Shown here piece by piece: positions 854-34,940 of a DNA stretch of 64,000 nt. Under the pieces are notes generated by a model. The model saw nothing but the letters and a program-made list of their open reading frames with translations. It was not told where the DNA came from and did not search any database. The DNA is taken from NCBI GenBank assembly GCA_000433475.1, contig HF993109.1, forward strand, positions 133,712 through 197,711, read 5' to 3'. The DNA comes from Mycoplasma sp. CAG:956. Its GTDB lineage: Bacteria; Bacillota_I; Bacilli_A; RF39; UBA660. The position numbers and the translations under genes are program-made. The stretch's first letter is position 1, and the number at the start of each line of letters is the position of its first letter.

Positions 854-1088
854 AGATAAAGATTTCTTAAACAAAGAACAAGATAATATTATGTTACTAG
901 ATATGGTTAAAATTAAACATAAACCTGCCGTCTTAAATACATTCAACAGTACCATAGTAAGTGTGATTGCTAGACACCAAGATTGGGAAAAACTGGATAA
1001 AAAAACTCTAAAGATAAGAATGGAAGCCAAGACTTCCAATATGGTTGATACAAACTCGCTTCTAAGTTACTATAGTAATAGTAAAAAT
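602..1088 (+). repeat. 2 x 247-bp tandem duplication (unit length not divisible by 3) spanning the ORF1/ORF2 junction
   Basis: nt 605-841 and 852-1088 encode the same 80 aa (SEDKDFLNKEQDN...LLSYYSNSKN) in two different frames; ~93 percent nt identity; copy offset 247 nt. Confidence 0.85.
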
Positions 1089-5378: not shown

Positions 5379-6530
5379 ATGCCTAAAATTAATCAACCAG
5401 CCTCTAAAATCAGAATGTCATTTGATGAATGGTTTCCTGTAGCCCAAAAATATTATCAAGAACATAAAAATCTCTTAGTACCCCTAGATTATGAAACTAA
5501 AGATGGTAAAAAGTTAGGAAAATGGATAGCCAGTAAAAGAAAAGATTATGCTAATAATTTATTATCCTTAGAAAAAATTAAGGCTTTAGATAGTATTGGT
5601 ATGGTTTGGAGTATCAACGAAAAGAAATGGAATGATATGTTTAATCTTTTAATAGAGTACAAAAATATCCATGGTAATTTAGATATATCATCTTCATATG
5701 TAACCTTAAGTTGTGTAACTTTAGGCATTTGGCTAAGAGAACAACAAAATTCCTATCTTAGGGGTACCCTAAAAGAAGAAAGACAAGAAAAGTTAGAAAG
5801 TATTGGCATTATTTGGCAAACCAATGAAACAAAATGGTATGAAATGTATAAATATGCTAAAGAATATCAAAAAGAACATGGCACTTTAATAACTACCAAG
5901 AATTATATTACTCCAAATGGTAAGTCTCTAACTGAATGGTTACAAGCCCAACGTAGTGGCTACCACAAGAAAACATTAAAACCCGAAAGAATAAAACTTC
6001 TTGAAGCCATTGGCATGGTCTGGAGTATAAATCAAAGTTATACTTGGCATGATATGTATTTACTTGCCCAAGAATATCAAAAAGAACATGGCAATCTAAT
6101 TATTCCTAGAAATTATAAAAGTAAAAATGGCTTAAATTTAGGCTACTGGCTTTATAAAGAAAAACTAAAATATCGTCAAGGAAAATTAGCACCAGAAAAA
6201 ATTATTGCCTTAGAACACATTGGTATCGTTTGGACTAACAAAATTAATCATGACATTTCTAAATATTTAAGAAAACTAAAAGAATCTGACAATCCAATTA
6301 TTATCGATGAAAAAATTAATGCGGATATTTTAAATAATATTTCTTTAATCGAATTAGAAAGTAAAATTAAATATATAACCGATATGGGAGCCCTACCAAT
6401 AGATAACACTGGTCGTTTAATAGATATATTTACTATAAGTAATACTGATATGGAAGAAAGATACGGCATATCTTTAGAAGCCATGATTGAATCATTTGAA
6501 GTAAGCAGTGCTAGAAAACTATATTATTAA
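5379..6530 (+). CDS. HA (helicase-associated) domain repeat protein, 5 tandem HA repeats plus family C-terminal module
   Basis: RBS AAAGGA; repeats of W..(F/Y)....Y...H.NLLVP..Y.T.DGK.LG.WI...R..Y....L..E.I..L.SIGMVW; C-term ...NISLIELESKIKYI...G.LIDIFTISNTDMEERYGISLEAMIESF. Confidence 0.75.
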   Translation: MPKINQPASKIRMSFDEWFPVAQKYYQEHKNLLVPLDYETKDGKKLGKWIASKRKDYANNLLSLEKIKALDSIGMVWSINEKKWNDMFNLLIEYKNIHGNLDISSSYVTLSCVTLGIWLREQQNSYLRGTLKEERQEKLESIGIIWQTNETKWYEMYKYAKEYQKEHGTLITTKNYITPNGKSLTEWLQAQRSGYHKKTLKPERIKLLEAIGMVWSINQSYTWHDMYLLAQEYQKEHGNLIIPRNYKSKNGLNLGYWLYKEKLKYRQGKLAPEKIIALEHIGIVWTNKINHDISKYLRKLKESDNPIIIDEKINADILNNISLIELESKIKYITDMGALPIDNTGRLIDIFTISNTDMEERYGISLEAMIESFEVSSARKLYY

Positions 6531-9459: not shown

Positions 9460-10857
9460 ATGATTAAAAAAAGTATAAGAAAAAATCCAAAGGATAATTT
9501 TGATGAGTGGTTTAAAATAGCAGCATATTATTATAAAAAACATAACAATCTATTAGTGCCCGCTAACTATTTAACCGAGGATGGTAAAAAATTAGGAGAG
9601 TGGATAATTTATATTCGAACTAAATATAATTCTGATGACCAAAAAATAACTAAAGAGCAAAAAGAAATGCTAGATTCTATTGGTATGGTTTGGAACTTAT
9701 ATGATTATAGATGGCAAGAAAGATTTAATCAAGTTAAAAAGTTTTATGATGAATATGGAACCATAGAACTTTTACCAACCTATCAGGGAAAAGAAGGCTT
9801 AAAACTCTTAAACTGGATAAAATTTCAAAGAAATATTTACTATAGTAAAAGTAAGAAACCAAAAGATCTAGAAAAAATTGCTAAATTAGAAAGTATTGGC
9901 GTCATTTGTCATCATAAAGATGAAATGTGGGTTTCCATGTATAACTTAGCTTTCTTATATTATAAGAAAAACAATAATCTATTGATTCCTGCTTGTTATG
10001 AAACTACTCTTGGTAAAAAACTTGGTATCTGGATAAGAAATCAAAGAAAAAGTTATTCTGATGGTAATTTATCTGAAATTAAAATCGCAGCCTTGGAATC
10101 TATTGGCATGGTTTGGCATGTTTATGAAAATAAGTGGAACCTAATGTATAAAGAAGCCTTAACTTATTATCAAAAATATCATACTATCAGTATTTATAAA
10201 GACTATAAACCAACTTATGTAACCAAAGAAGAACTATGTCAGTGGTTAGCAACTCAAAAGATATATTATAAACAACATAAAAATTTAACTCTTGAGCAAT
10301 ATAAGAAACTAAATTTAATTAAAATAGACTTTGACTATCAAGAAGATAATTGGAATTATATGTATAACTTGGCAACTAATTACTATTTAGAAAATGGTCA
10401 TTTACTAATTCCTAGAACCTTTAAATCTGAAGGTAAGAATTTAGGTATTTGGTTAGAATCACAACGTCAACATTACCAAAAACAAAAACTTTCTGAAGCA
10501 AAAATTCTTCTTTTAGAATCTATCGGTATCATTTGGCAACCGAGAAAAAATCTTTCATCTATATATAATTATTTAGATGAAAATTATCCTTTAATTGATA
10601 AACGACTTAACAGGGATGTTTTAAACCGTATTTCCTTACTAGAACTAATTGCTAAAATTAATTATTTAATTTGTTGTAAACATACTTCCTTTATTTATAG
10701 TAATGGGCTTTTAAAAGATATATTTTCTATGAGTAGTATAGCTATCAAAAATGATCCTAACTATGGTATTTCCTTAGAAGAAATAATTAATACCTATGGT
10801 AAAGAATATATTTTAAAATATAATAAAAATATGAAAGGTAAAACTTTAGACTTATAA
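9460..10857 (+). CDS. HA (helicase-associated) domain repeat protein, 6 tandem HA repeats plus family C-terminal module
   Basis: RBS AAAGGGGA; HA repeats (..W...Y......Y.......L.P..Y.T..GKKLG.WI..QR..Y......E.KI..LESIGMVW); C-term LNRISLLELIAKINYL...NGLLKDIFSMSSIAIKNDPNYGISLEEIINTYG. Confidence 0.75.
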   Translation: MIKKSIRKNPKDNFDEWFKIAAYYYKKHNNLLVPANYLTEDGKKLGEWIIYIRTKYNSDDQKITKEQKEMLDSIGMVWNLYDYRWQERFNQVKKFYDEYGTIELLPTYQGKEGLKLLNWIKFQRNIYYSKSKKPKDLEKIAKLESIGVICHHKDEMWVSMYNLAFLYYKKNNNLLIPACYETTLGKKLGIWIRNQRKSYSDGNLSEIKIAALESIGMVWHVYENKWNLMYKEALTYYQKYHTISIYKDYKPTYVTKEELCQWLATQKIYYKQHKNLTLEQYKKLNLIKIDFDYQEDNWNYMYNLATNYYLENGHLLIPRTFKSEGKNLGIWLESQRQHYQKQKLSEAKILLLESIGIIWQPRKNLSSIYNYLDENYPLIDKRLNRDVLNRISLLELIAKINYLICCKHTSFIYSNGLLKDIFSMSSIAIKNDPNYGISLEEIINTYGKEYILKYNKNMKGKTLDL

Positions 10858-10948: not shown

Positions 10949-13561
10949 ATGGAATATGGTATCGATTATATATTAAAATTACCAACTGAAGATATAAAAA
11001 CTTATTTAGAAAGTGCTAGTATAATAGATATCCTAGCCATCTTAGAAAATATCAAAAAACGTAAGGAAATGGATTATGCTTCTTTAAACAAATTAGAAAA
11101 ATTAGAAGAGCAAATTAAAATAAATAAAAATTACCTTACTGATATCGATAAACGTATAAATTTTGCTACTAAAACTAATGCTCCTAAAGTAGAAGTTGAT
11201 TTATTATGGGAAGAATATAGTCGTTATGATGCCATTATCGATGATTTAACTAGTAAAAAAGAACAATTAATTCAAGGATTTAATGATAAAAAACAAGCCA
11301 TTTTTACTTTAGCATGGAATATGATCTTAGAAGCTCCTGTATCTAAATTAGAAGATTACCGAAACAGCCTTATCACATGGCTAAAAAATAGAATAGAAGC
11401 TATTGAAACTAATAAGAGCAACAGGGAAATAACTACCAATACACTTTTAGAAGATAGAAACTTTACTAAAGAAGATCTAACTGTTAAATCAATTGATGCC
11501 GAGATTAAAGAAATGGAATCTCAAGTTCTAAATCATGAACTTATTTTAAATGAAGAAACTATTGGGAAGATTAAATCATTAAGAGCTAAAAAAGAATCAT
11601 TAGAACATGAAACTTTTACTTTTGTTTGCACAGAAAAGATAAAAACGTCTCTAAAAACTATTAGTAATGATATAACTAAATTACAGATGGAATTATCTAA
11701 CATTATTCAAATGGACATTGAATCTTTAAAAGAAATGATTTTAAGTGATTATGCTCAAGGCAAAGAAGAAATAAAATTAGCCAACTACGTTCGTATTTAT
11801 CGCTCTTATTTAGAAAATATTAGTAAAGTACCTCTTACTTTAAAAGCAGCATATCGTAATATTTGCCTAAACTATGCTAATCTTTTAAATTCCATAGAAA
11901 ATCCTAGCTTTGAAGGGGAAACTCTTAATGATTTAGATATTAAATTAAAAGAATTACATAATTATATAAAAACTTTAGAACAATATAAAACTAAAAAAAA
12001 TGATAAAACTACCGAAACTAAGTTCTTATATACTACTGTAAGACAACAAGGCTTATTTGAACTTCCTTTCTCTAAAGATAAATGGTTATCTTATTTTGGT
12101 AAATATTTTGAATCCTTACTTAACGAAATTAAACCATTAGAAGAAAAGAATAAAGAATATATCTCTTTAACAACAGTTAGTCTAAAGAGTAAAAAGATAG
12201 AAGAAGAATTAGACTTATATCGTAAAGACTTAAGAAGTATGTTAGATGAACTATATAACAAAGTTTTATCCATATATTTAAAGAATAATTTATATATTAA
12301 TGTTAATGTTTATGATTATCGTGATACCGAAACATTTACTAAGTACTTAGAATATCAAACTATTAGTATCGATAAAGAAATAGCAAGTGTTAAAACTACT
12401 ATTGAAGGATTAAATAGTAAGAAGAGTAATATCTTAGAATTAATTAATGATACTTATAGTAAGATTGATACTGATATTAAAGCTAAATTAAATAGTATTT
12501 TTAATGGAACTTATGTAAAAGAAGAAGAACAAGAAGAAAAACCTCATCATTTCTTTGCAAGTCCTACTACATTAGAACCTAGTTATAATGATACTTTTGA
12601 TGATACAACTAGTAATTTAGAACCTATAAGTAAGGTAGAAGAAGAACCAGAAGTATCTGAATTTGATTCTTTCTTTGCTACTGATATTCCTTTTAAAGAT
12701 GATGATACAGAAGAAAATAATGAACTACCAGAAGAAGCTCCTACAAGACCTAAACATGAATTAGAACCAGATGAAGTTCCTTTGAAAGAAAAAGAAATCA
12801 AAGATGAACAAAGTAACAATTCTAGCATAACCACCTTTAATCCCGATGATATCTTTGGTAGTACATCAAATACTTTAGATAATGCTTTAGAAGAAGAGCA
12901 AAAACAAGAACCAGTAGTTTCAAAAGAAGAAGATGATACGGTAATTTCTTTTGATAGTGAAGATATAGCATCAACAAAGGCCTCAGAAAAAAAAGAAGAG
13001 GCTAGTGAAGCTAGTGCAGTATCTGATGATATAAACTTTGATGATGCTATATCATCATCTGATAGAGAAGCTTTTAAAGAACTACTTGAACCTCAAAAAG
13101 TGCCAGATTTTAATACCATAATTAATACTCCTGAACCAAGTACTAAAGAAGAAAAAAACAAAATCAAAAAAAGAGGACTTAAAGTAATTAAACAAGAACC
13201 AGTAGTTTCTAAAAAAATGTCAAAGAAAACACCAGAGGTAGTTTCAAAAACAACTGTTAAAACGGATGCTACTGAGATTAAAGAACGAATCGAAAACAGC
13301 CAAAATGATAGACAAAGTAAAAATGTACCACCACTATTTAATCCGGCTAGTGCTAGTGATGTAAAAAGTGAATACAATGATACTAATGCTCCAATTGATT
13401 TAAATGCTTTTCTAAATGGCAACCTTTCAAATCCAACAGAAAAACAAGAAACTAAAGAAGTTGATGATAAAACTAAAAAATTAACTTTAAGTCAAGATGA
13501 TAATATAAATTTGATGGACTTTTTAAACCAAATTGAAAATAACGATGCTAAAGTAGCTTAA
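10949..13561 (+). CDS. Hypothetical 870-aa coiled-coil protein with long acidic Ser/Glu/Pro-rich disordered C-terminal half
   Basis: RBS AAGGAG; heptad-like K/E/L-rich N-terminal 520 aa; C-terminal ~350 aa dominated by E, D, S, P, T. Confidence 0.7.
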   Translation: MEYGIDYILKLPTEDIKTYLESASIIDILAILENIKKRKEMDYASLNKLEKLEEQIKINKNYLTDIDKRINFATKTNAPKVEVDLLWEEYSRYDAIIDDLTSKKEQLIQGFNDKKQAIFTLAWNMILEAPVSKLEDYRNSLITWLKNRIEAIETNKSNREITTNTLLEDRNFTKEDLTVKSIDAEIKEMESQVLNHELILNEETIGKIKSLRAKKESLEHETFTFVCTEKIKTSLKTISNDITKLQMELSNIIQMDIESLKEMILSDYAQGKEEIKLANYVRIYRSYLENISKVPLTLKAAYRNICLNYANLLNSIENPSFEGETLNDLDIKLKELHNYIKTLEQYKTKKNDKTTETKFLYTTVRQQGLFELPFSKDKWLSYFGKYFESLLNEIKPLEEKNKEYISLTTVSLKSKKIEEELDLYRKDLRSMLDELYNKVLSIYLKNNLYINVNVYDYRDTETFTKYLEYQTISIDKEIASVKTTIEGLNSKKSNILELINDTYSKIDTDIKAKLNSIFNGTYVKEEEQEEKPHHFFASPTTLEPSYNDTFDDTTSNLEPISKVEEEPEVSEFDSFFATDIPFKDDDTEENNELPEEAPTRPKHELEPDEVPLKEKEIKDEQSNNSSITTFNPDDIFGSTSNTLDNALEEEQKQEPVVSKEEDDTVISFDSEDIASTKASEKKEEASEASAVSDDINFDDAISSSDREAFKELLEPQKVPDFNTIINTPEPSTKEEKNKIKKRGLKVIKQEPVVSKKMSKKTPEVVSKTTVKTDATEIKERIENSQNDRQSKNVPPLFNPASASDVKSEYNDTNAPIDLNAFLNGNLSNPTEKQETKEVDDKTKKLTLSQDDNINLMDFLNQIENNDAKVA

Positions 13562-14920: not shown

Positions 14921-17900
14921 ATGAATAATAAATTAAGTATTGAAGAATTTAGAAAATATAAAGAACAATTACAAAAAATAATTGATGACTTTAAAAATAA
15001 TTATGAAGTAATGAAAAATAATCCTTCTTATAATGAAGCCCAAGAAGAAGAAAAAAGCATTGCTGCCTATTTTAAAATTGAACAAGATCTTTTTAGTCAT
15101 GATTTAAGTGCTATCCCATACGAAGAGTATCAAAACCTATCAATTATGGCAACAGACCAAGAAGAATTAGATCTGTCAAATAGCCATGCTAATATTGATT
15201 TTTCACTCATCGAGGTATTTGGACACTGCAATTTTAAGGGGTGTAACTTAAAAAATATTGAAAAAGTAAATGATAGAATAAGTCCTAAGTATTTAGATAC
15301 TGATATCTTTTTAAAAAATAAAGATTTATTTTTATCTAGTAGTTTTCCCGAATGGTTCCAAGAAAAATGGTACTATGGTGATTTATCAATCGAAGATGTA
15401 ACTAAATTAGATAAGACTTTAATAGAAGAACTTATCAGTAATCCGCAAATTTTATATCATCTTAGTAATAGTCATGATGTTTATATAATTAGAAATTTAG
15501 GCTTAAAAAAGGCTCTTTCTATCTATAATTATTCTAAAGAAGAATATCAAGTCTTAAATAACCTTATATTTAATCTATCAAGTGCTAATTTTAATAAGAT
15601 AGACCAATCATTAACTGATCCCGAAGCAATTATTAAAAATATTTATCAAATCTCTGTTGATGATATATTAGCGGTAGATAATGAGTATTTTAAAAGAAGA
15701 TTAAAGCCAGAAAGTTATCATCAAAAATTTGTTGAGGCTAATGAAAATATTTTTAAAACTAAGAGTAACTTACCAGAAGATGTTAAAAATAGATATTATG
15801 AACACAATCTTAGTGTAAATGATGTTTTAAATAACTATGAGGAATTCAAAAATATTCCCTTATTAGGATTTATGAAATCAATAACAAGTAGTTCTAAAGA
15901 TATAATTTGTAATATTAATTTAGCTTATGGTAGTATGGCTTTTCAACAAGTTTATCCATTATATCCCAAATTAATTAAACATTTAAATGATGCTGATATT
16001 TTTTTAAGTTTTAATAAAAATTATGATGTAAAAACTGGTTTAAGAGATGCCGTTACTAATTGCTTAGAATGCTTTAAAGAAAAAAAAGTACCCGATTGGG
16101 CAAATGAAATGTTTACAAGTATTGTTCCTAAATATTACGATATAAGCAATTTGAAAAAATATAATCCCCAAATTTGCTTATATGATCCCTTGCAACGCAA
16201 AATAGTAGAAACTAACAACGTTGATAATGCAATCAAATTTAATGACGAAACACATTTTTTTGATTATGTGGACGATAGAAGTCCCGTAAATGCCTTTATC
16301 TTATATTTAAAAAGAAGTAATATTGACTTTAAAGAATTTGCTACTTATCAAGAATTTCGTGCCTTTATGGCAGAGCATTTAGGAAAAATGCGAGAAAAAA
16401 ATTACTTTAAAGATTATGATTCCTACGCCTTTATTCCGACCTATTCCAAAGCTTTTTACCAAGATTTTCGTCATATCTTTATTGATTTAAATAGCAATGG
16501 AACCTTACAAAAAGCCTTCTATGATAATAGATTAACACCTGATTATATAAGGCTTTATCCTAAGTGTTTTAAAGATTTAGAACACGAAGATTTAAGATAT
16601 GTTATAAGTAGCGATAATAAAAAATTTAAAGAAGTATTTATTCCTTTTTATACCAGTCATTTTGGTAATTTAGCATTATTAGATATTTTTAAAAAATATG
16701 CTTATAACAATTATCTAGTTGATTCCCTTGACCAAATAAAGTTAGATGAGGGTATGACTAAGGAACAAATTGATAAAAAAATAAGAAGCATTACTTATAG
16801 TAATATTTTAAAATACAGCCAGTTTTATTGGAAAAATTTAAAAAGTGATCCTTTATTTGCTAAAGAATATCCAGAACTTATTCTATCCGAAGATGAAATA
16901 ATGACACCAAGTGGCATAGTCCAAAATGACATTATCGATAAATTTTACAGAGGTAAATTAACTTTTGATGATATATTTACTTGTAAACCGCTAGCTTTAG
17001 CCTTACAACATAAAAATATCAATGTTGCCATTAGAAACAATAGTACTTATTATTTTGGCAATGGTATGAACGAAGCTCAAATTTATCTAAAACAGTTAGG
17101 CCAAGAAGACTTTCTAAAATTATGTAGTACTTTTGGTAAATTCTTAGATAATTCCATTAACAGAATTAAATTTTCTAATGATATTTCTTATTCCGAATTA
17201 TGTAAACAATTAGAAGAACTAACTGTTAAAAAAGCAACTTATGAAGGTATTCCTTTTAATGAAAGCAATGCCCCTTCCTTCTTAGTACAACAGCATCCTG
17301 AACTTTTCTTGGATGAATCTGCTCCTTGGGGGTTAAAAATGGCTTTTGAGGATGGTATTGATTTTTACTCTTTAGCAGCTAACTATAATGAGACTTTCCC
17401 TTTCTTAAAAGATAAAGCGGCTGTAAGTTTCTTTATCAGAAAAGATAAAGGACATAAAGGTGCCATTGCTAATTATTTTAATCTTTTTGGTAATATAGAT
17501 GCCTTAAAACTTGCTGGTAAAAAGCCCGATATTGTAACTAAAATGATTCATCATGATAAGGTTTACAATTTAAGAACCTGGTATTTAAAAACAGGTGGTA
17601 AATTTATTCCTGATCCAGTTGTTATGGAAAATTTTCCCCTAGATGATGTTGATAAATTCTTAACAGCAGGATTTAAATGGAGCAATTTAATGCGTTTATC
17701 AGAATTTACTAAAAATGATGAAACCAAAGAAGCCTTGCTAAAAATTGCTTATGTTTTTGGTACTTTTGATAATGATGATAGGGGCTATAAAAAAGTATAT
17801 GACTTATTAACTGAATTGCCGACTAAGTTTAAAGAAGATATTGGTTATATCTTTGATAACTTAGATAATGCTCTAGATAGTAATGCTAATTTTAATGTTT

Positions 17901-19513
17901 ATTTTCCTAATAATGATTTGGCAACAAATTTAATATTAACTGCTAATTCTGAAAAATTTCCGATTACTAGACCTAACTTTTTTAAACAGTTATATCGCCA
18001 TAATGCTGATAATACTTATACTTTAACAATTAATCAGCAAAAATATCCTAAAACAAGCCTAGTTATTCATGAAATTCTAAGTAGTTTTAAAGAATTTCAT
18101 TTAATAAATGCTACCAATGCTCATCAATTATTTGGTAACTTTGATTTTCAATATAATCCTGACTTTTATAATTTTTTCATAACTAATTTAGATACAATAT
18201 TAAATGATACTGAAAATTCTAGGTATTTGGGTTCTATTCAAAAACAATTTAAAGATATTAAAACAATAAATTCTAATCGTCACCTAACTTGGCAGATGGC
18301 AGTTAACTATGTTTTAGAAAATAAGTTTACCAATGTTAATCTTGGTAACGAACAAATGGCTGCTGTTTCATCTATTGCAGGCTATACCCAAGAACAATTT
18401 GAAAAACTACAAGAAATTTATGAATATAGTAAAAGAAGAGTAAAAAGTAGTATTCCTCATATCGAAGAAAGAACTGATGATTACACTTATGAGACCTTAA
18501 GATTAGATGATCCATTAGGTCTTGCTATTGGTACCCTTACTGATTGCTGTCAGGAAATAGATGATGCTGCCGAAGTTTGTATGGAACACTCAATGACAAG
18601 TTCCGATGGTCGTATTTTTGTCATAAAAGATAAAGAAAATAATATTGTAGCTCAAAGTTGGGTATGGCGAAATCAAAATGTTTTATGTTTTGATAATATA
18701 GAAATTCCTCACAAAGCCTTTGAACGAGCTATCCAAAAAAAGATAAATTTAACCCAAGTAGTTTATGATATATATAAACAAGCTGCTAATATTTTATTAG
18801 AAAAAGATAAAGAAATGTATAAGTCTTTATTGGAAAAAGGAAAGATAACAAAAGAAGAATATGATGCCCTATGTTTATCAAAAGTAACTGTTGGATTAGG
18901 TTATAATGATATTGCCGAAGAATTAGAAAAACAAGCAACACTTGATAATGGTATTCTTACTCATCCTCTTGATTATGATGCTCCAGTAAAGTTAAATCGT
19001 AGTCTTTATACCAATGACTCTAAAACCCAATATATTATTGCTGGCAACCAAGATCGTCTAAATAGAAGCCCAATGGAAACTAAAGCTTTATATACCGATG
19101 ACTTTAAAATTTATGATGATACTAACTTCCAAGAAAAAGATTATTTACATTTAATGAAATTAGAACTATTAACTGAAAATGGTAGCGATGATTTGAACTA
19201 TGCATTAACTAAATCAAGAAAAGATGAAAGCTTCCTAACTATTTTAGCTCGTTGTTATAATTTAGATCCTAAAACAACCCAAGTAATTTATAATAGTAAT
19301 ATGTCTATAATCTATGATATAAAAGATGATACCTTAAGAATAGGTAAAATTCTTTATAATTCAAATAACTATGATGTAGCTTATTACCAAATAAAAATAG
19401 CTATAGAAAAAATAGCCCAAGATAAAAATATAGATTTATCATTATCAGATAAAAATACCCAAGATTTATATAACAAAATAAATCTTAATAATGATATAAA
19501 GAGTAGGAGTTAA
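14921..19513 (+). CDS. Giant (1530 aa) cytoplasmic hypothetical protein
   Basis: RBS TAGGAG; no signal peptide or TM; Cys cluster GTLTDCCQEIDDAAEVCMEHSMTS near aa 1190; no family recognised. Confidence 0.75.
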   Translation: MNNKLSIEEFRKYKEQLQKIIDDFKNNYEVMKNNPSYNEAQEEEKSIAAYFKIEQDLFSHDLSAIPYEEYQNLSIMATDQEELDLSNSHANIDFSLIEVFGHCNFKGCNLKNIEKVNDRISPKYLDTDIFLKNKDLFLSSSFPEWFQEKWYYGDLSIEDVTKLDKTLIEELISNPQILYHLSNSHDVYIIRNLGLKKALSIYNYSKEEYQVLNNLIFNLSSANFNKIDQSLTDPEAIIKNIYQISVDDILAVDNEYFKRRLKPESYHQKFVEANENIFKTKSNLPEDVKNRYYEHNLSVNDVLNNYEEFKNIPLLGFMKSITSSSKDIICNINLAYGSMAFQQVYPLYPKLIKHLNDADIFLSFNKNYDVKTGLRDAVTNCLECFKEKKVPDWANEMFTSIVPKYYDISNLKKYNPQICLYDPLQRKIVETNNVDNAIKFNDETHFFDYVDDRSPVNAFILYLKRSNIDFKEFATYQEFRAFMAEHLGKMREKNYFKDYDSYAFIPTYSKAFYQDFRHIFIDLNSNGTLQKAFYDNRLTPDYIRLYPKCFKDLEHEDLRYVISSDNKKFKEVFIPFYTSHFGNLALLDIFKKYAYNNYLVDSLDQIKLDEGMTKEQIDKKIRSITYSNILKYSQFYWKNLKSDPLFAKEYPELILSEDEIMTPSGIVQNDIIDKFYRGKLTFDDIFTCKPLALALQHKNINVAIRNNSTYYFGNGMNEAQIYLKQLGQEDFLKLCSTFGKFLDNSINRIKFSNDISYSELCKQLEELTVKKATYEGIPFNESNAPSFLVQQHPELFLDESAPWGLKMAFEDGIDFYSLAANYNETFPFLKDKAAVSFFIRKDKGHKGAIANYFNLFGNIDALKLAGKKPDIVTKMIHHDKVYNLRTWYLKTGGKFIPDPVVMENFPLDDVDKFLTAGFKWSNLMRLSEFTKNDETKEALLKIAYVFGTFDNDDRGYKKVYDLLTELPTKFKEDIGYIFDNLDNALDSNANFNVYFPNNDLATNLILTANSEKFPITRPNFFKQLYRHNADNTYTLTINQQKYPKTSLVIHEILSSFKEFHLINATNAHQLFGNFDFQYNPDFYNFFITNLDTILNDTENSRYLGSIQKQFKDIKTINSNRHLTWQMAVNYVLENKFTNVNLGNEQMAAVSSIAGYTQEQFEKLQEIYEYSKRRVKSSIPHIEERTDDYTYETLRLDDPLGLAIGTLTDCCQEIDDAAEVCMEHSMTSSDGRIFVIKDKENNIVAQSWVWRNQNVLCFDNIEIPHKAFERAIQKKINLTQVVYDIYKQAANILLEKDKEMYKSLLEKGKITKEEYDALCLSKVTVGLGYNDIAEELEKQATLDNGILTHPLDYDAPVKLNRSLYTNDSKTQYIIAGNQDRLNRSPMETKALYTDDFKIYDDTNFQEKDYLHLMKLELLTENGSDDLNYALTKSRKDESFLTILARCYNLDPKTTQVIYNSNMSIIYDIKDDTLRIGKILYNSNNYDVAYYQIKIAIEKIAQDKNIDLSLSDKNTQDLYNKINLNNDIKSRS

Positions 19514-19515
19514 CT

Positions 19516-20496
19516 ATGTTAGATAATAATTTAGATACTATAATTAATAAAACTTATATTATCGATAAAACCCCTTTAAATGAAGAAAAAATAAAAAAAG
19601 TAATAATAAGTCTAAAAGACAGTATTATTTCTAGTAAAGAAGAAATTACAGCGGCAAATGCTATAGATATAAAAAATCATAATGGCAATATAATTGACTT
19701 TTCTATTATTGAAAGAATATTTAAAAATATTAATAATGAAAAAATTTATTATGGTAATGTAACAACCCTAAAAAAAGATAATAATAAGTATTATGGCAAA
19801 CAATACTTTGATAAAGGCAATGTCTTAATTTTTAATACAGGCAATCCTTATATTATCTTAGAAATATTTTTAAAAAACTTTTTAGCAGGTAATACTTCTA
19901 TTATTGTTACTACTAATTATGCATATGGCTTAAATAAATTATTAGAAACCATTATTAAAACTGTGTTAGAAACAAATAATCTATCACCAGACTTTATTAA
20001 CTTACTTACAACTGATGCCCCCGAAGAATTATTAAAAAATAATTATGCCAATATTGATTTAGTAATAGCACTTGGTAATAAATCTTTCCAAAATAAGATT
20101 ACTAACTATTCTAAAGTACCTGTTTTACTTAGTGGCTATGAAACATTTGATTTATATATTGATGAAATGTTAGATAAAACTTTTCTAACAAAGATAATTA
20201 ATCTTCATTTACCAATGCACGTTTATATTAATAAAAATTTAAAAATTGATTTACGAGGTAGTATGTTAGTAGATGGAGTAGAGGAAGCTATTATGCAAAT
20301 TAATTATAATGGTAATGGTTATAGTAGTGCTATATTTACTAGTAATGATGATAATGCCGCTAATTTTATTAGTAAAGTTAAGTCCAAGATAGTTACGGTT
20401 AATACTAGTCCTACTATTGAAAGACTAATGGATATACAAGTTAAGGATTTAGTCTTAGAAAAGACCGTTATTTATCCTAATAAAAAGAAAAACTAG
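19516..20496 (+). CDS. Shortened gamma-glutamyl-phosphate reductase (ProA)-like protein lacking the ALDH catalytic Cys (probable pseudoenzyme)
   Basis: 326 aa vs ~415 for ProA; by-eye alignment, recalling the E. coli ProA sequence from memory: LDDAI.HIN.HG..HSDAILT.D...A.RFV..VDS.AVYVNASTRF vs ours VEEAIMQINYNGNGYSSAIFTSNDDNAANFISKVKSKIVTVNTSPTIE; position of the ProA ..STCNTVE.. catalytic Cys reads HLPMHVYINKN; start 3 nt after upstream stop. Confidence 0.5.
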   Translation: MLDNNLDTIINKTYIIDKTPLNEEKIKKVIISLKDSIISSKEEITAANAIDIKNHNGNIIDFSIIERIFKNINNEKIYYGNVTTLKKDNNKYYGKQYFDKGNVLIFNTGNPYIILEIFLKNFLAGNTSIIVTTNYAYGLNKLLETIIKTVLETNNLSPDFINLLTTDAPEELLKNNYANIDLVIALGNKSFQNKITNYSKVPVLLSGYETFDLYIDEMLDKTFLTKIINLHLPMHVYINKNLKIDLRGSMLVDGVEEAIMQINYNGNGYSSAIFTSNDDNAANFISKVKSKIVTVNTSPTIERLMDIQVKDLVLEKTVIYPNKKKN

Positions 20497-24744: not shown

Positions 24745-25152
24745 ATGCAACAACATGAAGTCATAACTAAATTTAAATTTACTTTTCTTAAATATTATGT
24801 TATTATCGTAGCGAAAAAATGGGAAAAATATGATATATCTAAAAACTTAATAAATACTATTCTTACTGAAAATTATGAAGAAGTATTAAAATATTATAGT
24901 TCAATTAACTTAGTTTTGGCTATTTCGGTTTTAGATGTTTATGAGGCTATAACCTTAATTAATGCTAGTAGTAATCTTTATAGTGCATCTATATTTACAA
25001 GTGATGATACTATCGCTAGAACTTTTATAAAAGATATTCATACTAAAAAAGTAATGGTAAATGCCAGTCCTTTATTAGAAAGTTTTCTTGATATAAAAGA
25101 AGAAGATTTAGTTGATATAAAAGAAATATATAGTGCTTATTCTAATAATTAA
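24745..25152 (+). pseudogene. C-terminal ProA-like fragment, paralogous to the C-terminus of 19516..20496
   Basis: ...ISVLDVYEAITLINASSNLYSASIFTSDDTIARTFIKDIHTKKVMVNASPLLE.. aligns with ..VEEAIMQINYNGNGYSSAIFTSNDDNAANFISKVKSKIVTVNTSPTIE..; only 135 aa, no RBS. Confidence 0.4.
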
Positions 25153-25331
25153 TAAGATAAACCCTGATTCGTATTTTTGCTGAATTGGGGTTTTTATAAT
25201 ACAATCTAAATATTAAGATTATCAATCTTTTTTTGAAATCACCTAAAATAATTATGAAAAATAACCCAAAAGCGGTTGCTAAAAACTGGAAAATATAATA
25301 AAATAATCTATACGGAAGAGTGGGGATTAGA

Positions 25332-26687
25332 ATGCCAGCAAAGAAGAAAATAAAAACAAAAAAAACAACTACAACTAATAAAGGAGTAAAGAAAAGTACC
25401 AAGAAAGTAACTACTAAATCTCCAACTAAAAAATCAACAACTAAAGACTTAAAAAAGGAGATTGAAAAAACAACAACTCCTAAAAAGGTTATAAAAAAGC
25501 AAACTACTAAAACAACTAAGGATACCAAAAAAGTATCTAAAATGCCTAAAACTACTAAGAAGACTACTCCTAAAAAGCCAGTTGTAGTAAAAGCTGAAAA
25601 TGAAAAAATAAAAGAAACCATTGAATTACCAAAAACTAAAGCTCAAGTAAAACTAGAAGAAGAAACTAGAAAATTAGAATTAAAACAAGAGTTAGAACGT
25701 AAATTAGCCTTAGAAGAAAATTTAGAAAAGACTCATGAACTTAATTTAAAGAAGATAAATAAAACTAGAAAGAAAAGCCATGCTCAAAATATTGCTCGTG
25801 AAAAAACCAATGATTTTGTTAAAAAATTAAAAAAATTACAACGAAAAATAAAAATATATGGCATCGATAGTGTTATTCCTAAAAAATATATTGCAACGAC
25901 AGTAGTAGCTATCTTAATAATTCTTATTTGTATTATGAGTATTAATATGGTTAAACCAGAAATTGATAATATTAATCTTGAAAATGTTTCTGAAGAAATT
26001 GATCAGTTAAAGACCCTAAGTTTTGAAATAAGTAATACTAGTAATGTTATTGAAGAAAGCAAAGCCTACAAAAGTGAGTTAAAAGAATATTATGAATACG
26101 ATTTTTCCACCTTCGGTCTCCAAAGAAGTTGGTTAGATGAATTTAAAATATTTTATAATGAAAAAAATAAACAATTGTTTTTTGTTTTAAAACCAACTAA
26201 CGATAATAACGATAATGTAACGGGTGCTATTGAAAAATTTTTAAAAACCAATAAAATTAATACTACTAAAGAAGAATATGATGGTTATATCTTCTATATT
26301 AATAGTAACGATGATAAAAAAGTAGTTAGTAAAATTAAACAAAGTCAAATTAAAGTATTTGATATCTTACAAGAACTAAATAAAGACGAAATCAAAGAAA
26401 AATATGGTATAGAAAGTTCTCTTTATAAAGAATATAAAGTTAAAACAGCCATGATAGTTAAATCTGATGTAACAGAATATTTACTATTTTATCCTAAGAA
26501 CCATACAGCTGCTAAAGAAATAGAAAAGTTGATGGATGAGTATTACGAGAAAAGAGAAGAAAAATGGGCAAACAATGAAGAAAATCTTAACCTCATTAAA
26601 AATCGTTATACTGGTAATTACAATGGCTATTTAGTGTATATTGTTTCTAAAGATAATGACCTAGTTTTACAATTATTGAAAAAATAG
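25332..26687 (+). CDS. Bitopic membrane protein with Lys/Thr-rich low-complexity cytoplasmic N-tail
   Basis: ATG 25332 (tool start 25320 is GTG); ~85 aa of KKTTTK-type repeats, coiled-coil segment, TM IATTVVAILIILICIMSINMV, ~230-aa extracytoplasmic domain. Confidence 0.65.
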   Translation: MPAKKKIKTKKTTTTNKGVKKSTKKVTTKSPTKKSTTKDLKKEIEKTTTPKKVIKKQTTKTTKDTKKVSKMPKTTKKTTPKKPVVVKAENEKIKETIELPKTKAQVKLEEETRKLELKQELERKLALEENLEKTHELNLKKINKTRKKSHAQNIAREKTNDFVKKLKKLQRKIKIYGIDSVIPKKYIATTVVAILIILICIMSINMVKPEIDNINLENVSEEIDQLKTLSFEISNTSNVIEESKAYKSELKEYYEYDFSTFGLQRSWLDEFKIFYNEKNKQLFFVLKPTNDNNDNVTGAIEKFLKTNKINTTKEEYDGYIFYINSNDDKKVVSKIKQSQIKVFDILQELNKDEIKEKYGIESSLYKEYKVKTAMIVKSDVTEYLLFYPKNHTAAKEIEKLMDEYYEKREEKWANNEENLNLIKNRYTGNYNGYLVYIVSKDNDLVLQLLKK

Positions 26688-26828: not shown

Positions 26829-29381
26829 ATGGAAAAAAAGAATAAAGGCTTTACAATCCCTGAACTTTTGGCTGTTATTGTTATAATTGGCATCTTAGTA
26901 ACCATAGCATCCGCAAGTTATAATGGAATTAGTAAAACCTTAAAAGAAAAAACATATCAAAATAAAATAAACTTGATAAAAACTAAAGCCGTTGAATATG
27001 CAACCGATAATAATGTTGATGCTGAAACTATAAGTGTTGCAAAATTATTAAATGAAGGCTATCTAGAATTGGAAAATGATACGGAAGCCAATGAAAAACT
27101 AAATAATCCTAACGGTGGTTACTTAGATTGCTACCAAGTAAGCATTAATAAAAATATCGATGATTATGATATCAATGTTACTAGTGATGATACTTGTAAT
27201 ATGGCAAATCTTGATAATGCTTCTAGTAAAATTACTATTTATGCTTATGAGACAGAAAAGGTAAATAATAATGTTCAGATTAATTATGAAGCCTTAGGTA
27301 GTAATAACAATACTAAATGGACAAATAAAGACGTTTACTTATTTATTGATCCTAAAACTTTACCAGTTGAAGAACTAAGTAATGTTAAAATAACTTGGAC
27401 TCTTAATAATGAAATAATTACTAAAAATGGTAATTTAACTGATAGTGTTTCTAGTAATTTAGATTATGCCAATATCTATCAGGTAGAAACTAATTACTTA
27501 TATAATGCTATGGTAACTGCTCAGATTGAAATCGATGGTAAAAGATATAGTCAAAAAGCCAGTGTTAAGATTGATAAAGAAAAACCTAGTGTAGCTCTTG
27601 ATTTTAATGCTAGTTATGAAAAAATGGATGAACAAACGAGAAGAGCTACTAAAATTATTAATTTTAATGGTTCTGATGGTAGTGGTTCTGGTATTGGTCT
27701 TACTAAAGAAAATAATACTGTAGTTGGTTATTTCCTTACTGATGATGCCACTTACGTACCAAGTGCTAGTGACTTTAATATAACAACTGAGGCTCATCAA
27801 ACTAATGCTTATGAAAATGGTACTTATTATGGTTATACCATCGATGCTGTAGGTAATATTTCTAATCCTACTAGTATCAATATTGACAATGTTACTTACG
27901 ACTTACCAGTTTGTTTATTACCAAATGCTAATAAAACTTGGACTAACAAAGATTATACTTATACCTATGGCTGTAAAAATGATAAAGGAACTGGTTGTTC
28001 TTATGAATTAATAAGTAAAACTGTAACTACTGATACCGATACTTTACCAGATTTTGAATGGAAAGCAACTGATAATACTGGTAACTCTGTTAATTGTGAA
28101 TCTAAAGGCTTATCTGTTAAAGTTGATAAAACCGCACCAACTTGTAATATTACTGTTATAAGTGGTACCTTAGGACGTAATAATTGGTATACTACTGATG
28201 TTAAGTTAGCCCTAAATTACTCTGATAATTTAAGTGGCATAGCAGCATATGGCATTACAACCAGTACTAATGCCGACTTTAATTCAGAAAAAGAAACAAC
28301 CCTAAATTTTGATACTCCAGGTATAACTTACTATGGTTATGTTAAGGATAATGCTGGTAATGTAGGTACTTGTAATATTACTGTTAAAAGATTAACAACA
28401 CCACCAACTTGTAATCTTTCTCTAAGTGGTACTAAAGGAAATAACAATTGGTATCGTTCTAATGTTGCTGTTACTATGCAAACAAATGGTTATGGTATAA
28501 GTGAAAAGAAAATATACTCACCAAACGGTGCAGTAAATAATGATTATTATACGTTAACTTATGATACTAATAATGCTACTATTACTGGTAATGTGACTAA
28601 TGAAGCTGGTTTAACTGGTACTTGCTCTACAATTATAAAAAGAGATGTTACCCCGCCAGTTGCAACCTTAAGAATGAAAACTACTCATTATTGTTACCAT
28701 ACTATAAATGTAACTACATCTGGTGGTTGTGGTGATAGTAGTAGTTCTAGAGATATTGATTGTACAACTTGGGATAATAAAGGCTTTAATAACAGTTCAA
28801 CTTTAAATAGTTATTTAAGTAGTAATGTTGGCAGTTATAAATCTTATTCTTATAAAGGTAAAACTGAGGGAGATAATGTATCTTATAACCAAGCCGAATT
28901 AGTTTGCTCTGATAATATGACTACTAATGTAAGTTATAAAATAGGTAATAAATCGGGAGCTATTTATGATTTAGATAGCGATTCTAATGCCAGAAGTAAA
29001 ACTAACTATACTATGACCGGTACTTGTACCGATGAAGCTGGTAACCAAGCAAGCTCATCTAAAAACTTTTATCGTTATGAAGATGAACAATACTGTGAAA
29101 AAACCCATACAGAATATACTTGCGATAGTACTCATATCGAAGTTACTAACTGTGATGATGGTAAAAACTATACAACATCTAGTGGTAATAACTGTGGTGG
29201 TGCCGATTCTAACGGTGAATACGGTTCCAACGGTGATGGCTCATATTATGATTGCGGTTGGGGTAGCGGTGGCTCCGGTAGTACCAGTGATTGTGGACAC
29301 GTTAATGAAGTTTGTGACCACGAAACTAGTTACGAAGTATCCGATGGCTTTTATAAATGTGCCGATAATAAATGGAGATAA
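26829..29381 (+). CDS. Large (850 aa) type IV pilin-like / pseudopilin-like protein with class III signal peptide and repeated Ig-like modules
   Basis: RBS AAAGAAAGGA; N-terminus KG/FTIPELLAVIVIIGILVTIASASY (prepilin cleavage G, Glu+5, hydrophobic helix); three ~100-aa modules T.PTCN.(T/S)...G..G.NNWY...V.......D..SG......T......G.TGTC..I.KR; Gly/Ser/Cys-rich C-tail. Confidence 0.65.
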   Translation: MEKKNKGFTIPELLAVIVIIGILVTIASASYNGISKTLKEKTYQNKINLIKTKAVEYATDNNVDAETISVAKLLNEGYLELENDTEANEKLNNPNGGYLDCYQVSINKNIDDYDINVTSDDTCNMANLDNASSKITIYAYETEKVNNNVQINYEALGSNNNTKWTNKDVYLFIDPKTLPVEELSNVKITWTLNNEIITKNGNLTDSVSSNLDYANIYQVETNYLYNAMVTAQIEIDGKRYSQKASVKIDKEKPSVALDFNASYEKMDEQTRRATKIINFNGSDGSGSGIGLTKENNTVVGYFLTDDATYVPSASDFNITTEAHQTNAYENGTYYGYTIDAVGNISNPTSINIDNVTYDLPVCLLPNANKTWTNKDYTYTYGCKNDKGTGCSYELISKTVTTDTDTLPDFEWKATDNTGNSVNCESKGLSVKVDKTAPTCNITVISGTLGRNNWYTTDVKLALNYSDNLSGIAAYGITTSTNADFNSEKETTLNFDTPGITYYGYVKDNAGNVGTCNITVKRLTTPPTCNLSLSGTKGNNNWYRSNVAVTMQTNGYGISEKKIYSPNGAVNNDYYTLTYDTNNATITGNVTNEAGLTGTCSTIIKRDVTPPVATLRMKTTHYCYHTINVTTSGGCGDSSSSRDIDCTTWDNKGFNNSSTLNSYLSSNVGSYKSYSYKGKTEGDNVSYNQAELVCSDNMTTNVSYKIGNKSGAIYDLDSDSNARSKTNYTMTGTCTDEAGNQASSSKNFYRYEDEQYCEKTHTEYTCDSTHIEVTNCDDGKNYTTSSGNNCGGADSNGEYGSNGDGSYYDCGWGSGGSGSTSDCGHVNEVCDHETSYEVSDGFYKCADNKWR

Positions 29382-29384
29382 ATT

Positions 29385-30521
29385 ATGAAGAAGAAAAAAA
29401 ATAGCATGGGAATATTTATCCTTATAATCTTAGTAATACTTATCTTAATTGGACTTGTTATATTCTTCTTAACTAGAAAACCTAAAGTAACTTATGAATA
29501 TTATATTAATAATAATAAAAGTAATATTGCTGGTAATAATATTTCTAATTATGAATGTAATAATGGTACAACCCTAAATATTGATGAAGATAATAATACT
29601 TATAGTATTTCATCTATTACTAAGAATTCTTTATGTAAAATATATTATGAAGATACAGCTGGTGAACAAATTATCAATTTAGCAAGTGGACTAGATACCT
29701 TAGAAGAAAAAAATAAAACTTATATTGATGATGCTAGTACCCTTCGTTATTACGGAGAAAATCCTCTTAATTATGTTTATTTTAATTGCAATAGTGATAC
29801 TGATACTAATACCTGTGAAATATGGCGTATTGTTAGTATAAATAAAGTATCTGATGTAACTAAGAAAAATAAATATAACTTAAAAATAGTAAAAGATACT
29901 CCTCTAAAAGCTATAGATACTACAACTAAAAATGAAATAACCGACTTTGAATGGAATAATAATCGTGACTTTAATATTATAGAATCTAGTATTTATAAAT
30001 TATTAAATGAAGCTTATTATAATGCTTCTAGTAATTATACCTATACTAATAAAGATAACAAGACCATTACTTTAGATTTCTCTAATAGTGGTTTAAAAAA
30101 TGATAATGTTAGAAAGATGGTTTTATCTAATACTTGGCGTATTAATGCTAATACAGATAATAATCAAACTATTACTAATTGGTATAGTGATACCACATCT
30201 GGAAATATGGCTAATTTTAAAATTGGCTTAATAAGTATTAGTGATTATGTTCTAGCTCTAAAAGATAACTGTAAAGATATAAAGATTAATGAATTTGCTA
30301 CTTGCAAGTCTAAATCTTATCTTACTAAAGAAAATGGTTTCTTTGTTTTAGATAGTTATCAAGAAAAAGAGGGATTTGTTTATCGAATTGCTGGCAATAA
30401 TGCTATAAATGCTATCTATCCAACGGCTACTTATAATATTTATCCATCTTTATATTTAAATGAAGATGTTAAGATTGTAAGTGGTGATGGCAGTATATCT
30501 AATCCTTATCATTTAGGATAA
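29385..30521 (+). CDS. N-terminally membrane-anchored hypothetical protein (378 aa), translationally linked to the pilin-like gene
   Basis: GGAG RBS; start 4 nt after upstream stop; TM IFILIILVILILIGLVIFFL then Asn/Thr-rich extracellular domain with Cys pairs. Confidence 0.6.
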   Translation: MKKKKNSMGIFILIILVILILIGLVIFFLTRKPKVTYEYYINNNKSNIAGNNISNYECNNGTTLNIDEDNNTYSISSITKNSLCKIYYEDTAGEQIINLASGLDTLEEKNKTYIDDASTLRYYGENPLNYVYFNCNSDTDTNTCEIWRIVSINKVSDVTKKNKYNLKIVKDTPLKAIDTTTKNEITDFEWNNNRDFNIIESSIYKLLNEAYYNASSNYTYTNKDNKTITLDFSNSGLKNDNVRKMVLSNTWRINANTDNNQTITNWYSDTTSGNMANFKIGLISISDYVLALKDNCKDIKINEFATCKSKSYLTKENGFFVLDSYQEKEGFVYRIAGNNAINAIYPTATYNIYPSLYLNEDVKIVSGDGSISNPYHLG

Positions 30522-30615
30522 TTATTAAAACCTTTTAAAAGTAATAAAATGTCTTATTAATTTAAGGCATTTTTTAATTTGAAATGTTTAAAATATAGAA
30601 GTTTAAATATGTATC

Positions 30616-34145: not shown

Positions 34146-34940
34146 TTATTTATCATTTTTCTTATAGCCTTTCTTTTTGTTAATTTTCTTTCCTTTAATT
34201 CTAGTTGTATTATAAAATTCTATCCATTCTTCAACTAATTGTATGTATTCTTCTAAAGATGTGATATCATTGTTATACAAAGTTTCCTTTTTTAGGAGAG
34301 AGTGCCAACTCTCAATTGGTGAGTCATCTATTGGAGTACCTTTTCTAGACATAGAAATAGTAATTCCATTAGATTCACAAATAGCTTTGTATTCATAAGA
34401 TGTATACTGGAATCCTTGGTCGGAATGTATTATTAATTCAGATACATCTTTTCTTTTTGCTATCGCTTTATTTAAAGTATCCATAACTAATTTATTATCA
34501 TTATGTTTTGATATTTTATATGCAACTACTTTTCTATCATACAAATCAATTATTGTTGATAAATATGCTCTAGAACCCTTAAATATAAGATATGTTACAT
34601 CTGTATCCCAAACTTTATTAGGTGCATCAGTGTTAAAATTACGATTTAATAAATTAGGTTTAACATTATCTTCAATTCTTTCATTTTTATTTTTCTTTTT
34701 TGATTCCCTTACATATTTAGGAATCAAATTATATTTTTTCATTATTCTTAAAACCTTCTTTCCATTCATTACAACTCCTTCATATTTGACTTTAATGCCT
34801 TCCGCAACGCGACGATATCCATATGTGCCCTTAGATTCATCAAATACTTCTTTAATTATCAAATAATCATAATAATCAGGATCTTCCTTATTTCGATATT
34901 TATAGTAAGTTTTAGAACTTATCTCTAATACGACACACAT
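34146..34940 (-). CDS. IS3-family transposase OrfB (DDE/rve integrase core)
   Basis: D..WDTDVTY, HSDQGFQYTS, ..E.. ..YNTTRIK motifs; frame -1 relative to orfA ((35278-34940) mod 3 = 2); orfB reading frame extends upstream of its first ATG. Confidence 0.85.
   Translation of the reverse strand: MCVVLEISSKTYYKYRNKEDPDYYDYLIIKEVFDESKGTYGYRRVAEGIKVKYEGVVMNGKKVLRIMKKYNLIPKYVRESKKKNKNERIEDNVKPNLLNRNFNTDAPNKVWDTDVTYLIFKGSRAYLSTIIDLYDRKVVAYKISKHNDNKLVMDTLNKAIAKRKDVSELIIHSDQGFQYTSYEYKAICESNGITISMSRKGTPIDDSPIESWHSLLKKETLYNNDITSLEEYIQLVEEWIEFYNTTRIKGKKINKKKGYKKNDK

Follow-up and report, generated by a model that had tools for sequence, protein, structure and literature searches.

A two-gene locus for a candidate modular minor type IV pilin and a membrane-anchored partner in Mycoplasma sp. 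CAG:956

Does a pilin-like N-terminus on a protein of 850 residues mark a component of a type IV filament, or does it merely hold a large surface protein in the membrane? This question is raised by a pair of adjacent genes, here called A and B, in a 64,000-nucleotide stretch of contig HF993109.1 from Mycoplasma sp. CAG:956, referred to below as the window. A preliminary description, made from the letters of this DNA, had presented gene A as an orphan giant pilin-like repeat protein coupled to a downstream membrane protein, and our results partly support that reading. The explanation that we cautiously favour is that A and B constitute a two-gene operon, in which A encodes a modular minor type IV pilin and B its cognate partner. 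The features of the first part of gene A are as follows.

26829..29381, forward strand: gene A (stop codon included), an open reading frame (ORF) for a modular prepilin-like protein of 850 residues, recognized by its matches to N_methyl and TIGR02532 and by its AlphaFold2 (AF2) model
26829..26849, forward strand: class III leader peptide MEKKNKG (residues 1-7), with a predicted prepilin-peptidase cut after G7
26850..27227, forward strand: mature pilin module (residues 8-133), with a hydrophobic alpha1N segment containing E12 (E5 of the mature protein), helix alpha1 and a small head bearing C101 and C123

The N-terminus of A combines a basic leader, a glycine, a hydrophobic residue at position +1 and a glutamate at +5, as expected of a class III signal peptide. 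The product begins MEKKNKG|FTIPELLAVIVIIGILVTIASASY, and the predicted mature protein begins FTIPE. Both the Pfam family N_methyl (25.3 bits, gathering threshold 21.2) and TIGR02532 (28 bits, cutoff 16.3) matched it above threshold, a six-frame scan revealed no other prepilin motif in the window, and an AAAGGA ribosome-binding site lies 5' of the gene. The motif [KR]G-F-[TS]-[IL]-[PV]-E, with Gly-1, Phe+1 and Glu+5, was kept in 113 of the 120 listed homologues, down to about 26% identity, and the seven proteins without it were truncated or were non-pilin Ig proteins. In an alignment of 56 homologues, G7 (position -1) and E12 (mature +5) were invariant, while G21 (mature G14), Y31 (mature Y24) and the cysteine pair of the head (C101/C123) were invariant or nearly so. 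This signature is conserved across homologues of 30-100% identity; within A, the pilin module shows the highest conservation and the C-terminal module the lowest.

In addition, a profile of residues 1-135 matched the alpha1 helix of 20 solved type IV pilins and pseudopilins, including Geobacter PilA-N (1.3e-7), Streptococcus sanguinis PilE1 (over 80 residues), the PAK pilin, gonococcal PilE and GspG. The AF2 model, which was built from the alignment of 56 homologues with a mean predicted local distance difference test (pLDDT) score of 83, places an extended alpha1 helix of 52 residues (10-61) on a small beta head (65-133) with strands at 65-69, 103-108 and 113-118. The prepilin N-terminus proposed in the preliminary description was thus borne out, and these findings support the view that it is a real, conserved pilin module and not a mere transmembrane (TM) anchor. 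None of the named pilin equivalogs (ComGC, GspG, GspH and PilA) was reached by A at the NCBIfam cutoffs: A scored 24-28 bits against ComGC (cutoff 75) and 20-24 bits against GspG (cutoff 88.85), and these matches were confined to the N-terminal helix. On this evidence A appears to be a pilin-class protein outside these four families. It is also far too bulky for a major pilin, as had been recognized earlier.

What, then, does the pilin module carry? The remainder of gene A comprises the following parts.

27228..28127, forward strand: D1-D3, three divergent Ig/PKD-like beta-sandwiches (residues 134-433), delimited by the strands of the model
28128..28646, forward strand: D4 (residues 434-522) and D5 (residues 523-606), tandem PKD/FN3-like repeats, each with an N-proximal and a C-proximal cysteine
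28647..29378, forward strand: distal module (residues 607-850), a long-strand beta domain with a disordered Gly/Ser/Cys tail (785-823) and a conserved end, ...NKWR

The model contains five beta-sandwich domains, at residues 137-249, 254-352, 360-432, 438-521 and 527-605. The preliminary description had counted three modules of about 100 residues, of which two (434-522 and 523-606) are true repeats, while the third (356-433) proved to be a divergent beta-sandwich. D4 and D5 aligned with a Smith-Waterman z of 16.3, a score reached in 0 of 300 shuffles; no significant sequence repeat was found among D1-D3 by the same shuffle-controlled method, a BLASTP self-comparison of A detected no internal repeats, and a Pfam search with the separate domains of A matched no family. 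Structure prediction and a comparison of repeat number between strains had both been proposed as checks. The former indicated that the repeats are PKD/FN3-like beta-sandwiches, as are all five of these domains. As to repeat number, a hidden Markov model (HMM) of the D4/D5 unit found 2 copies in A and 0 to 15 among its relatives; one related locus (L017) has the end domain and B partner of the window with 6 repeats. A thus joins a pilin module to modules that are not specific to pili, which is how modular pilins are defined (PMC8179133).

The distal domain of the model consists of very long strands (611-782 and 825-845), broken by the disordered stretch 785-823, where model confidence is low. 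The Gly/Ser/Cys-rich tail reported earlier corresponds to this stretch, and the whole protein contains 23 cysteines. The end domain is lineage-restricted: only 7 clusters matched it among 1.84 billion representatives. Two pilin-like paralogues at another locus (L073, 9992-13120 and 14917-17715) possess C-terminal regions of about 250 residues in which Cys, Ser, Tyr and Asn are extremely abundant and which amount to a greatly enlarged form of the Cys-rich tail of A.

Directly downstream of A lie gene B and a putative terminator.

29385..30521, forward strand: gene B, encoding a signal-anchored protein of 378 residues, with a TM helix (7-29), a beta domain (35-88) and a C-type-lectin-like, DUF6273-like domain (about 92-378)
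30546..30573, forward strand: AT-rich hairpin followed by a T-run (-10 kcal/mol, z -4.05), the likely terminator of an A-B operon

Gene B starts immediately after A, as had been noted, with a 3-nucleotide spacer (TAA att ATG). Because this spacer is combined with a GGAG inside the 3' end of A and with the hairpin 3' of B, A and B very probably form a bicistronic operon; a terminator consensus scan did not call the hairpin.

The AF2 model of B (pLDDT 88.7, predicted template modelling score 0.84) comprises the TM helix, the small beta domain and an alpha/beta domain extending to residue 378. B belongs to no sequence family: DUF6273 (PF19789) gave no match at E<=0.1, a PDB sequence search with the profile of B gave none, and none of its 151 relatives has a Pfam domain. 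Nevertheless, weak DUF6273 matches were present in 5 of 50 relatives of B (best 4e-4), and the predicted fold is that of the solved DUF6273 member, the N-terminal domain of an IgA peptidase (PDB 9qa6). A C-terminal motif of the type VRPxLYLxS...SGDGSxxxPYxL is common to the family. DUF6273 domains also occur as ligand-binding heads of phage receptor-binding proteins, in which they are targets of diversity-generating retroelements (DGRs) (PMC10743442). Taken together, the lectin-like model, the weak matches among relatives and the phage heads make B a membrane-anchored protein with a lectin fold and a probable role in ligand binding. The earlier picture of a downstream Cys-pair membrane protein stands as regards the TM helix and the cysteines, of which there are six, and must be extended, since the protein is a DUF6273-like lectin-fold partner that is genetically locked to the distal domain of A. 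Distant homologues of B (P0152, P0155, P0197, P0222 and similar proteins) bear N-termini of the SipW/camelysin type (...GTYAWFTW, STYAMFTT), and two of them match Peptidase_M73; in other lineages the lectin-like ectodomain is therefore exported by another route.

The association between A and B is seen well beyond this locus. The term orphan holds for the 64-kb window and fails outside it: the pilin-like family of A has at least 197 homologues, with several copies per genome, in metagenome-assembled genomes (MAGs) of uncultured gut Bacilli. Relatives of A come almost exclusively from uncultured gut MAGs, whose labels include 'Bacilli bacterium' (from Hadza, Brazilian, rabbit and ruminant samples), 'uncultured Tenericutes bacterium UMGS...', 'Candidatus Coprosoma' and 'Firmicutes bacterium CAG:822'. 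By similarity to A, 68 loci were fetched from species-representative genomes, and L008 was fetched separately. The fetched loci, some of them duplicates, contained 83 large pilin-like ORFs, nearly all located directly 5' of a gene for an N-terminally anchored protein; a strong N-terminal hydrophobic (TM) segment was found in 57 of 68 partners. These partners belong to several unrelated families, including WG-repeat proteins, and the choice of family follows the end of the pilin. When residues 611-850 of A were used to search for window-type end domains, 13 of the 83 ORFs had both this domain and a B-family partner, 69 had neither, none had the B partner only, and one had the end domain only. 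This single case is a second paralogue (L019), whose genome contains a B gene elsewhere. Single-linkage clustering of the last 250 residues of the pilin-like proteins was also tried and was uninformative because the shared Ig domains link everything.

A comparison with a conspecific strain further delimited one segment spanning both genes.

27952..30551, forward strand: allelic cassette, comprising distal A (from about codon 375) and all of B, divergent between strains and shared across species

The contig of this strain (L081, protein P0002) is 99-100% identical to the window over 26852-27951 and 96-100% identical from 30552 onwards, whereas the identity between these points is 59-89%. Its 2.6-kb block is 95.5% identical to that of L001, L002 and L003 and 95.7% identical to that of L010, loci whose flanks share only 73-76% identity with the window. 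Within the block, dS (synonymous divergence) is 0.7-1.1, compared with 0.004-0.04 in the flanks, and the dN/dS ratio is about 0.2. Positive selection was considered as the cause of the divergence of the block and was rejected on the basis of this ratio. The alleles appear instead to be old, functional and moved by homologous recombination, neither decaying nor rapidly evolving. As judged from these alignments, distal A and B behave as one cassette both in inheritance and in exchange between species, a pattern that would be expected of a surface-exposed recognition unit.

A pilin module implies a machine to assemble it. No T2SSE, T2SSF or Peptidase_A24 gene was found in the 64-kb window, either by Pfam scans of ORFs of at least 120 residues or by tblastn with PilB, PilC and PilD seeds from relatives, in agreement with the earlier observation that prepilin peptidase, assembly ATPase and platform genes are missing from it. 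The preliminary description had added that a genome devoid of any type IV pilus machinery would reduce the N-terminus to a TM anchor. In sister genomes, such machinery is present. First, at one locus (L080) a PilB/GspE-type ATPase gene adjoins a Peptidase_A24 gene and a T2SSF gene. Second, searches with machinery seeds of this type revealed PilC and PilD at L026 and L036, with Pfam matches above gathering thresholds to T2SSF and to A24_N_bact plus Peptidase_A24. L026 belongs to MAG CAKOON01, which also carries an orthologous A and B pair (L004/L016; A 43% and B 37% identical), and L036 lies on contig CAKOKU010000005.1, about 53 kb from the A and B pair L024 on that same contig. In L026, another two pilin-like genes, both accompanied by a partner gene, lie 2.6 kb downstream of PilC-PilD. 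Third, at L008 and L073 a PilB-type ATPase gene stands directly beside two or three pilin-like paralogues, and at L078/L079 an ATPase gene adjoins a gene for a canonical pilin of 155 residues. On these findings the lineage possesses a type-4-filament system, with its genes scattered.

Several observations were made around these machinery genes. The PilB-type ATPase of L073 (19203-21725, reverse strand) carries a fused C-terminal extension of about 400 residues, which is of low complexity, rich in Gln, Pro and Val, and contains repeated segments. The two pilin-like paralogues of L026 (6943-8736 and 9971-11869; 597 and 632 residues) have hydrophobic Gly-rich ends, e.g. GGLIGGLIGGLIGWAICAHK, and so combine a prepilin N-terminus with a possible C-terminal membrane segment. 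Extension of the rpoD-linked PilC-PilD synteny of L026 to the clade of the window was rejected, since the sigma factor of L001 is a different paralogue that has no PilC or PilD gene adjoining it.

Under the two-gene pilin reading, A would be made as a prepilin and cut after G7 by a prepilin peptidase encoded elsewhere in the genome. The alpha1N helix and Glu+5 would then let a machine of the PilB/PilC/PilD type insert A into a filament, most likely at the tip, given its bulk. The five PKD/FN3-like domains would act as a spacer stalk of variable length that sets the reach, and the Cys-rich C-terminal module would be the working end. B, held in the membrane by an uncleaved signal-anchor helix and carrying a C-type-lectin-like domain of the DUF6273 type, may cooperate with the distal module of A, whether bound to it as a co-adhesin or serving it as a dedicated factor for docking or maturation, so that specificity would come from the end domain of A together with the lectin-like B. 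What the data show is the conserved pilin signature, the architecture of A, the lectin-like fold modelled for B, its coupling and joint transfer with distal A, and machinery genes in related genomes; processing of the prepilin, its entry into a filament, display at the tip, adhesion, the binding of a ligand and a direct A-B contact are what we infer from them. As a further possibility, B might be handed from the membrane to the end domain of A and carried outward on the filament. A broader and decidedly tentative proposal is that, in these gut Bacilli with their small genomes, the type-4-filament machine is a general platform for displaying giant pilin-stalk adhesins, an interchangeable repertoire in which each has a matching membrane-anchored partner, with the distal pilin module and the partner forming a two-component recognition cassette that is traded between species.

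Six points weigh against the two-gene pilin reading. The 64-kb window has neither a type-4-filament machinery gene nor a gene for a small major pilin. In 66 of the 68 loci there is no assembly ATPase within 10 kb of a pilin-like gene, the exceptions being L073 and the separately fetched L008. Only one small canonical pilin was found across all loci. The hydrophobic Gly-rich C-termini of the L026 paralogues hint at anchoring at both ends and not at display on a filament. It is awkward that B is predicted to be membrane-anchored, since its partner domain would be displayed at a distance of tens of nanometres. Finally, distal A and B may have been transferred together merely because they are adjacent.

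The main rival is surface display of a bindosome-like kind. Sugar-binding proteins of Sulfolobus bear class III signals, and the Bas system assembles them. In a similar, bindosome-like arrangement, A would be processed by the peptidase and remain unpolymerised, rooted by alpha1N either directly in the membrane or in a pseudopilus that is very short; its Ig-like stalk would take the distal module across the peptidoglycan, and B would stand beside it as a membrane co-receptor. The membrane anchor of B fits this arrangement, as do the presence in one genome of several paralogues that each have a signal-anchored partner, the scattering of the machinery genes in the absence of a pilus operon, the near absence of small major pilins beside the pilin-like genes and the hydrophobic C-terminal tails of some paralogues. 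However, the ATPases of the relatives are of the PilB/GspE type, with only a marginal match to BasE (36 bits, cutoff 1000); the strict conservation of Glu+5, mature G14 and mature Y24, which are filament-packing features, would be needless for a mere anchor; and the canonical pilin of L078/L079 adjoins an ATPase gene. We regard the bindosome-like arrangement as possible, though a lesser prospect than a filament.

Two other explanations are weak. According to the first, the pilin-like N-terminus is only a membrane anchor, the species no longer has a type-4-filament machinery, and A is an ordinary surface protein held by that anchor. The window without machinery genes would agree with such a loss, as would the loci of the closest clade (L001, L011, L012 and L017), none of which has machinery within 10 kb, but only about 20 kb was covered per locus, so that absence nearby says little. 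Moreover, the closest relatives (70-99% identity) retain the leader glycine, Phe+1 and Glu+5 unchanged, the dN/dS of gene A is well below 1, and sister MAGs with orthologous A and B pairs encode PilC and PilD. Loss of the machinery is thus unlikely. According to the second, a receptor-binding cassette of mobile or phage origin came by chance to lie behind a pilin gene; this is very improbable because, although DUF6273 C-type-lectin-like domains are common in phage receptor-binding proteins, where they are DGR targets (PMC10743442), the block moves between species and an IS3-type transposase gene lies 3.6 kb downstream, the surroundings of the block showed no phage genes, reverse transcriptase or template repeat, the A-B pair occurs in differing chromosomal housekeeping contexts, and the breakpoints inside A and at the end of B fit homologous allelic replacement and not insertion.

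The surroundings of the operon have the character of a chromosome of a monoderm member of the Bacillota. The window has a G+C content of about 27% and contains housekeeping genes of this type, including those for FtsK, PFOR, KsgA, RpsD, a PrsA-like peptidyl-prolyl isomerase and ABC exporters, as well as two tRNA genes. Related loci encode Mur ligases, FtsW, a class A penicillin-binding protein and SpoIVA, and the lineage is therefore walled. A full-length SpoIVA gene lies between PilD and HU in L026 (4842-6317), where all three Pfam domains of the protein were matched with E-values down to 1e-98, and others were found in L025, L028, L030, L036 and L069; the MAGs labelled 'Tenericutes' or 'Bacilli' appear to be spore-formers.

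Other parts of the window were also noted. The IS3-type transposase gene (rve, HTH_21; 34146-34940, reverse strand) is located at the point where synteny with L001 breaks, and L001 has there a 244-residue gene and a 770-residue sigma-70-like gene between genes of 533 and 238 residues. Two proteins (5379-6530 and 9460-10857) consist almost wholly of 4-5 copies of the Helicase-associated domain (HA, PF03457; E 8e-66 and 1.5e-68), with a further weak match at 840-4355, and their genes are surrounded by large family-less ORFs (6735-9359, 10949-13561 and 14921-19513). The ORFs at 19516-20496 (326 residues) and 24745-25152 (135 residues) match only the C-terminal 60 or so residues of aldehyde dehydrogenase/ProA models, far below cutoff, and are remnants or else members of a small domain family; the former gene is also present in L001 (324 residues). 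A 159-residue ORF at 25142-25621 (reverse strand), antisense to the Lys/Thr-rich N-terminal region of a DUF4358 gene (25320-26687), is very hydrophobic and of low complexity and is probably not a gene. At the end of the window, an open-ended giant ORF of more than 2058 residues (57825-64000, forward strand) begins with a signal-peptide-like sequence, MKKNSKLLSVTLFLILTYFIAIPNTLAKK, and runs out of the stretch.

Type IV filaments in monoderm gut commensals have barely been studied, the present lineage is known from metagenomes only, and our literature search on pili in RF39/Tenericutes-like gut lineages found nothing specific. Relative to the literature that we found, four features are new: uncultured gut Bacilli have a large, multi-copy family of pilin-like proteins; each giant pilin is regularly paired with a gene for a signal-anchored partner; the family of the partner strictly matches the type of end domain; and distal pilin and partner pass between species as one cassette. 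If the two-gene pilin reading is true, binding by filaments would have been diversified in that a conserved pilin module received orphan end domains on stalks of differing length, each such pilin would be paired with a lectin-like partner, and the working end would be swapped between species by recombination. Such cassette trade would be a mode of switching pilus specificity that has not been described for type IV pili. The A-B pair also offers a concrete, testable way into how an uncultured group recognizes hosts, glycans or phages, and into the function of DUF6273 domains, including that of the Thomasclavelia ramosa IgA peptidase.

How does the locus compare with known systems? Modular pilins are an established class, and extensions of the Ig/FN3 type are among the architectures listed for them (Raynaud et al. 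2021, PMC8179133); A-B is thus not a new kind of system. The nearest parallels are PilB (pilin plus vWA) and PilC (pilin plus lectin) of S. sanguinis, which, like A, fuse a class III pilin module to bulky non-pilin modules, occur in a monoderm host and have a predicted role as tip-exposed adhesins (PMC8179133). A differs from them in its five-domain PKD/FN3-like stalk and lineage-restricted end domain, none of which has a database signature, in the position of its gene outside a pilus operon and in multiple copies per genome, and in being tied to a gene for a signal-anchored partner, which varies together with the end domain. The pairs CofB/CofJ of enterotoxigenic Escherichia coli and TcpB/TcpF of Vibrio cholerae likewise combine a large, beta-rich minor pilin with a separately encoded partner (PMC8179133). 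However, CofJ and TcpF are secreted and soluble and belong to type IVb systems of diderms, whereas B is predicted to be membrane-anchored in a monoderm host, and no sequence similarity was found between A-B and these pairs. The Sulfolobus bindosome substrates resemble A as large functional proteins with a prepilin-type signal and surface display; they differ in belonging to archaea and in using another machinery, the Bas system. For B, the nearest parallel is the N-terminal DUF6273 domain of the T. ramosa IgA peptidase (PDB 9qa6), which is dispensable for catalysis. The model of B shares its fold, while B itself has no Pfam match and is a stand-alone, signal-anchored protein with no peptidase attached.

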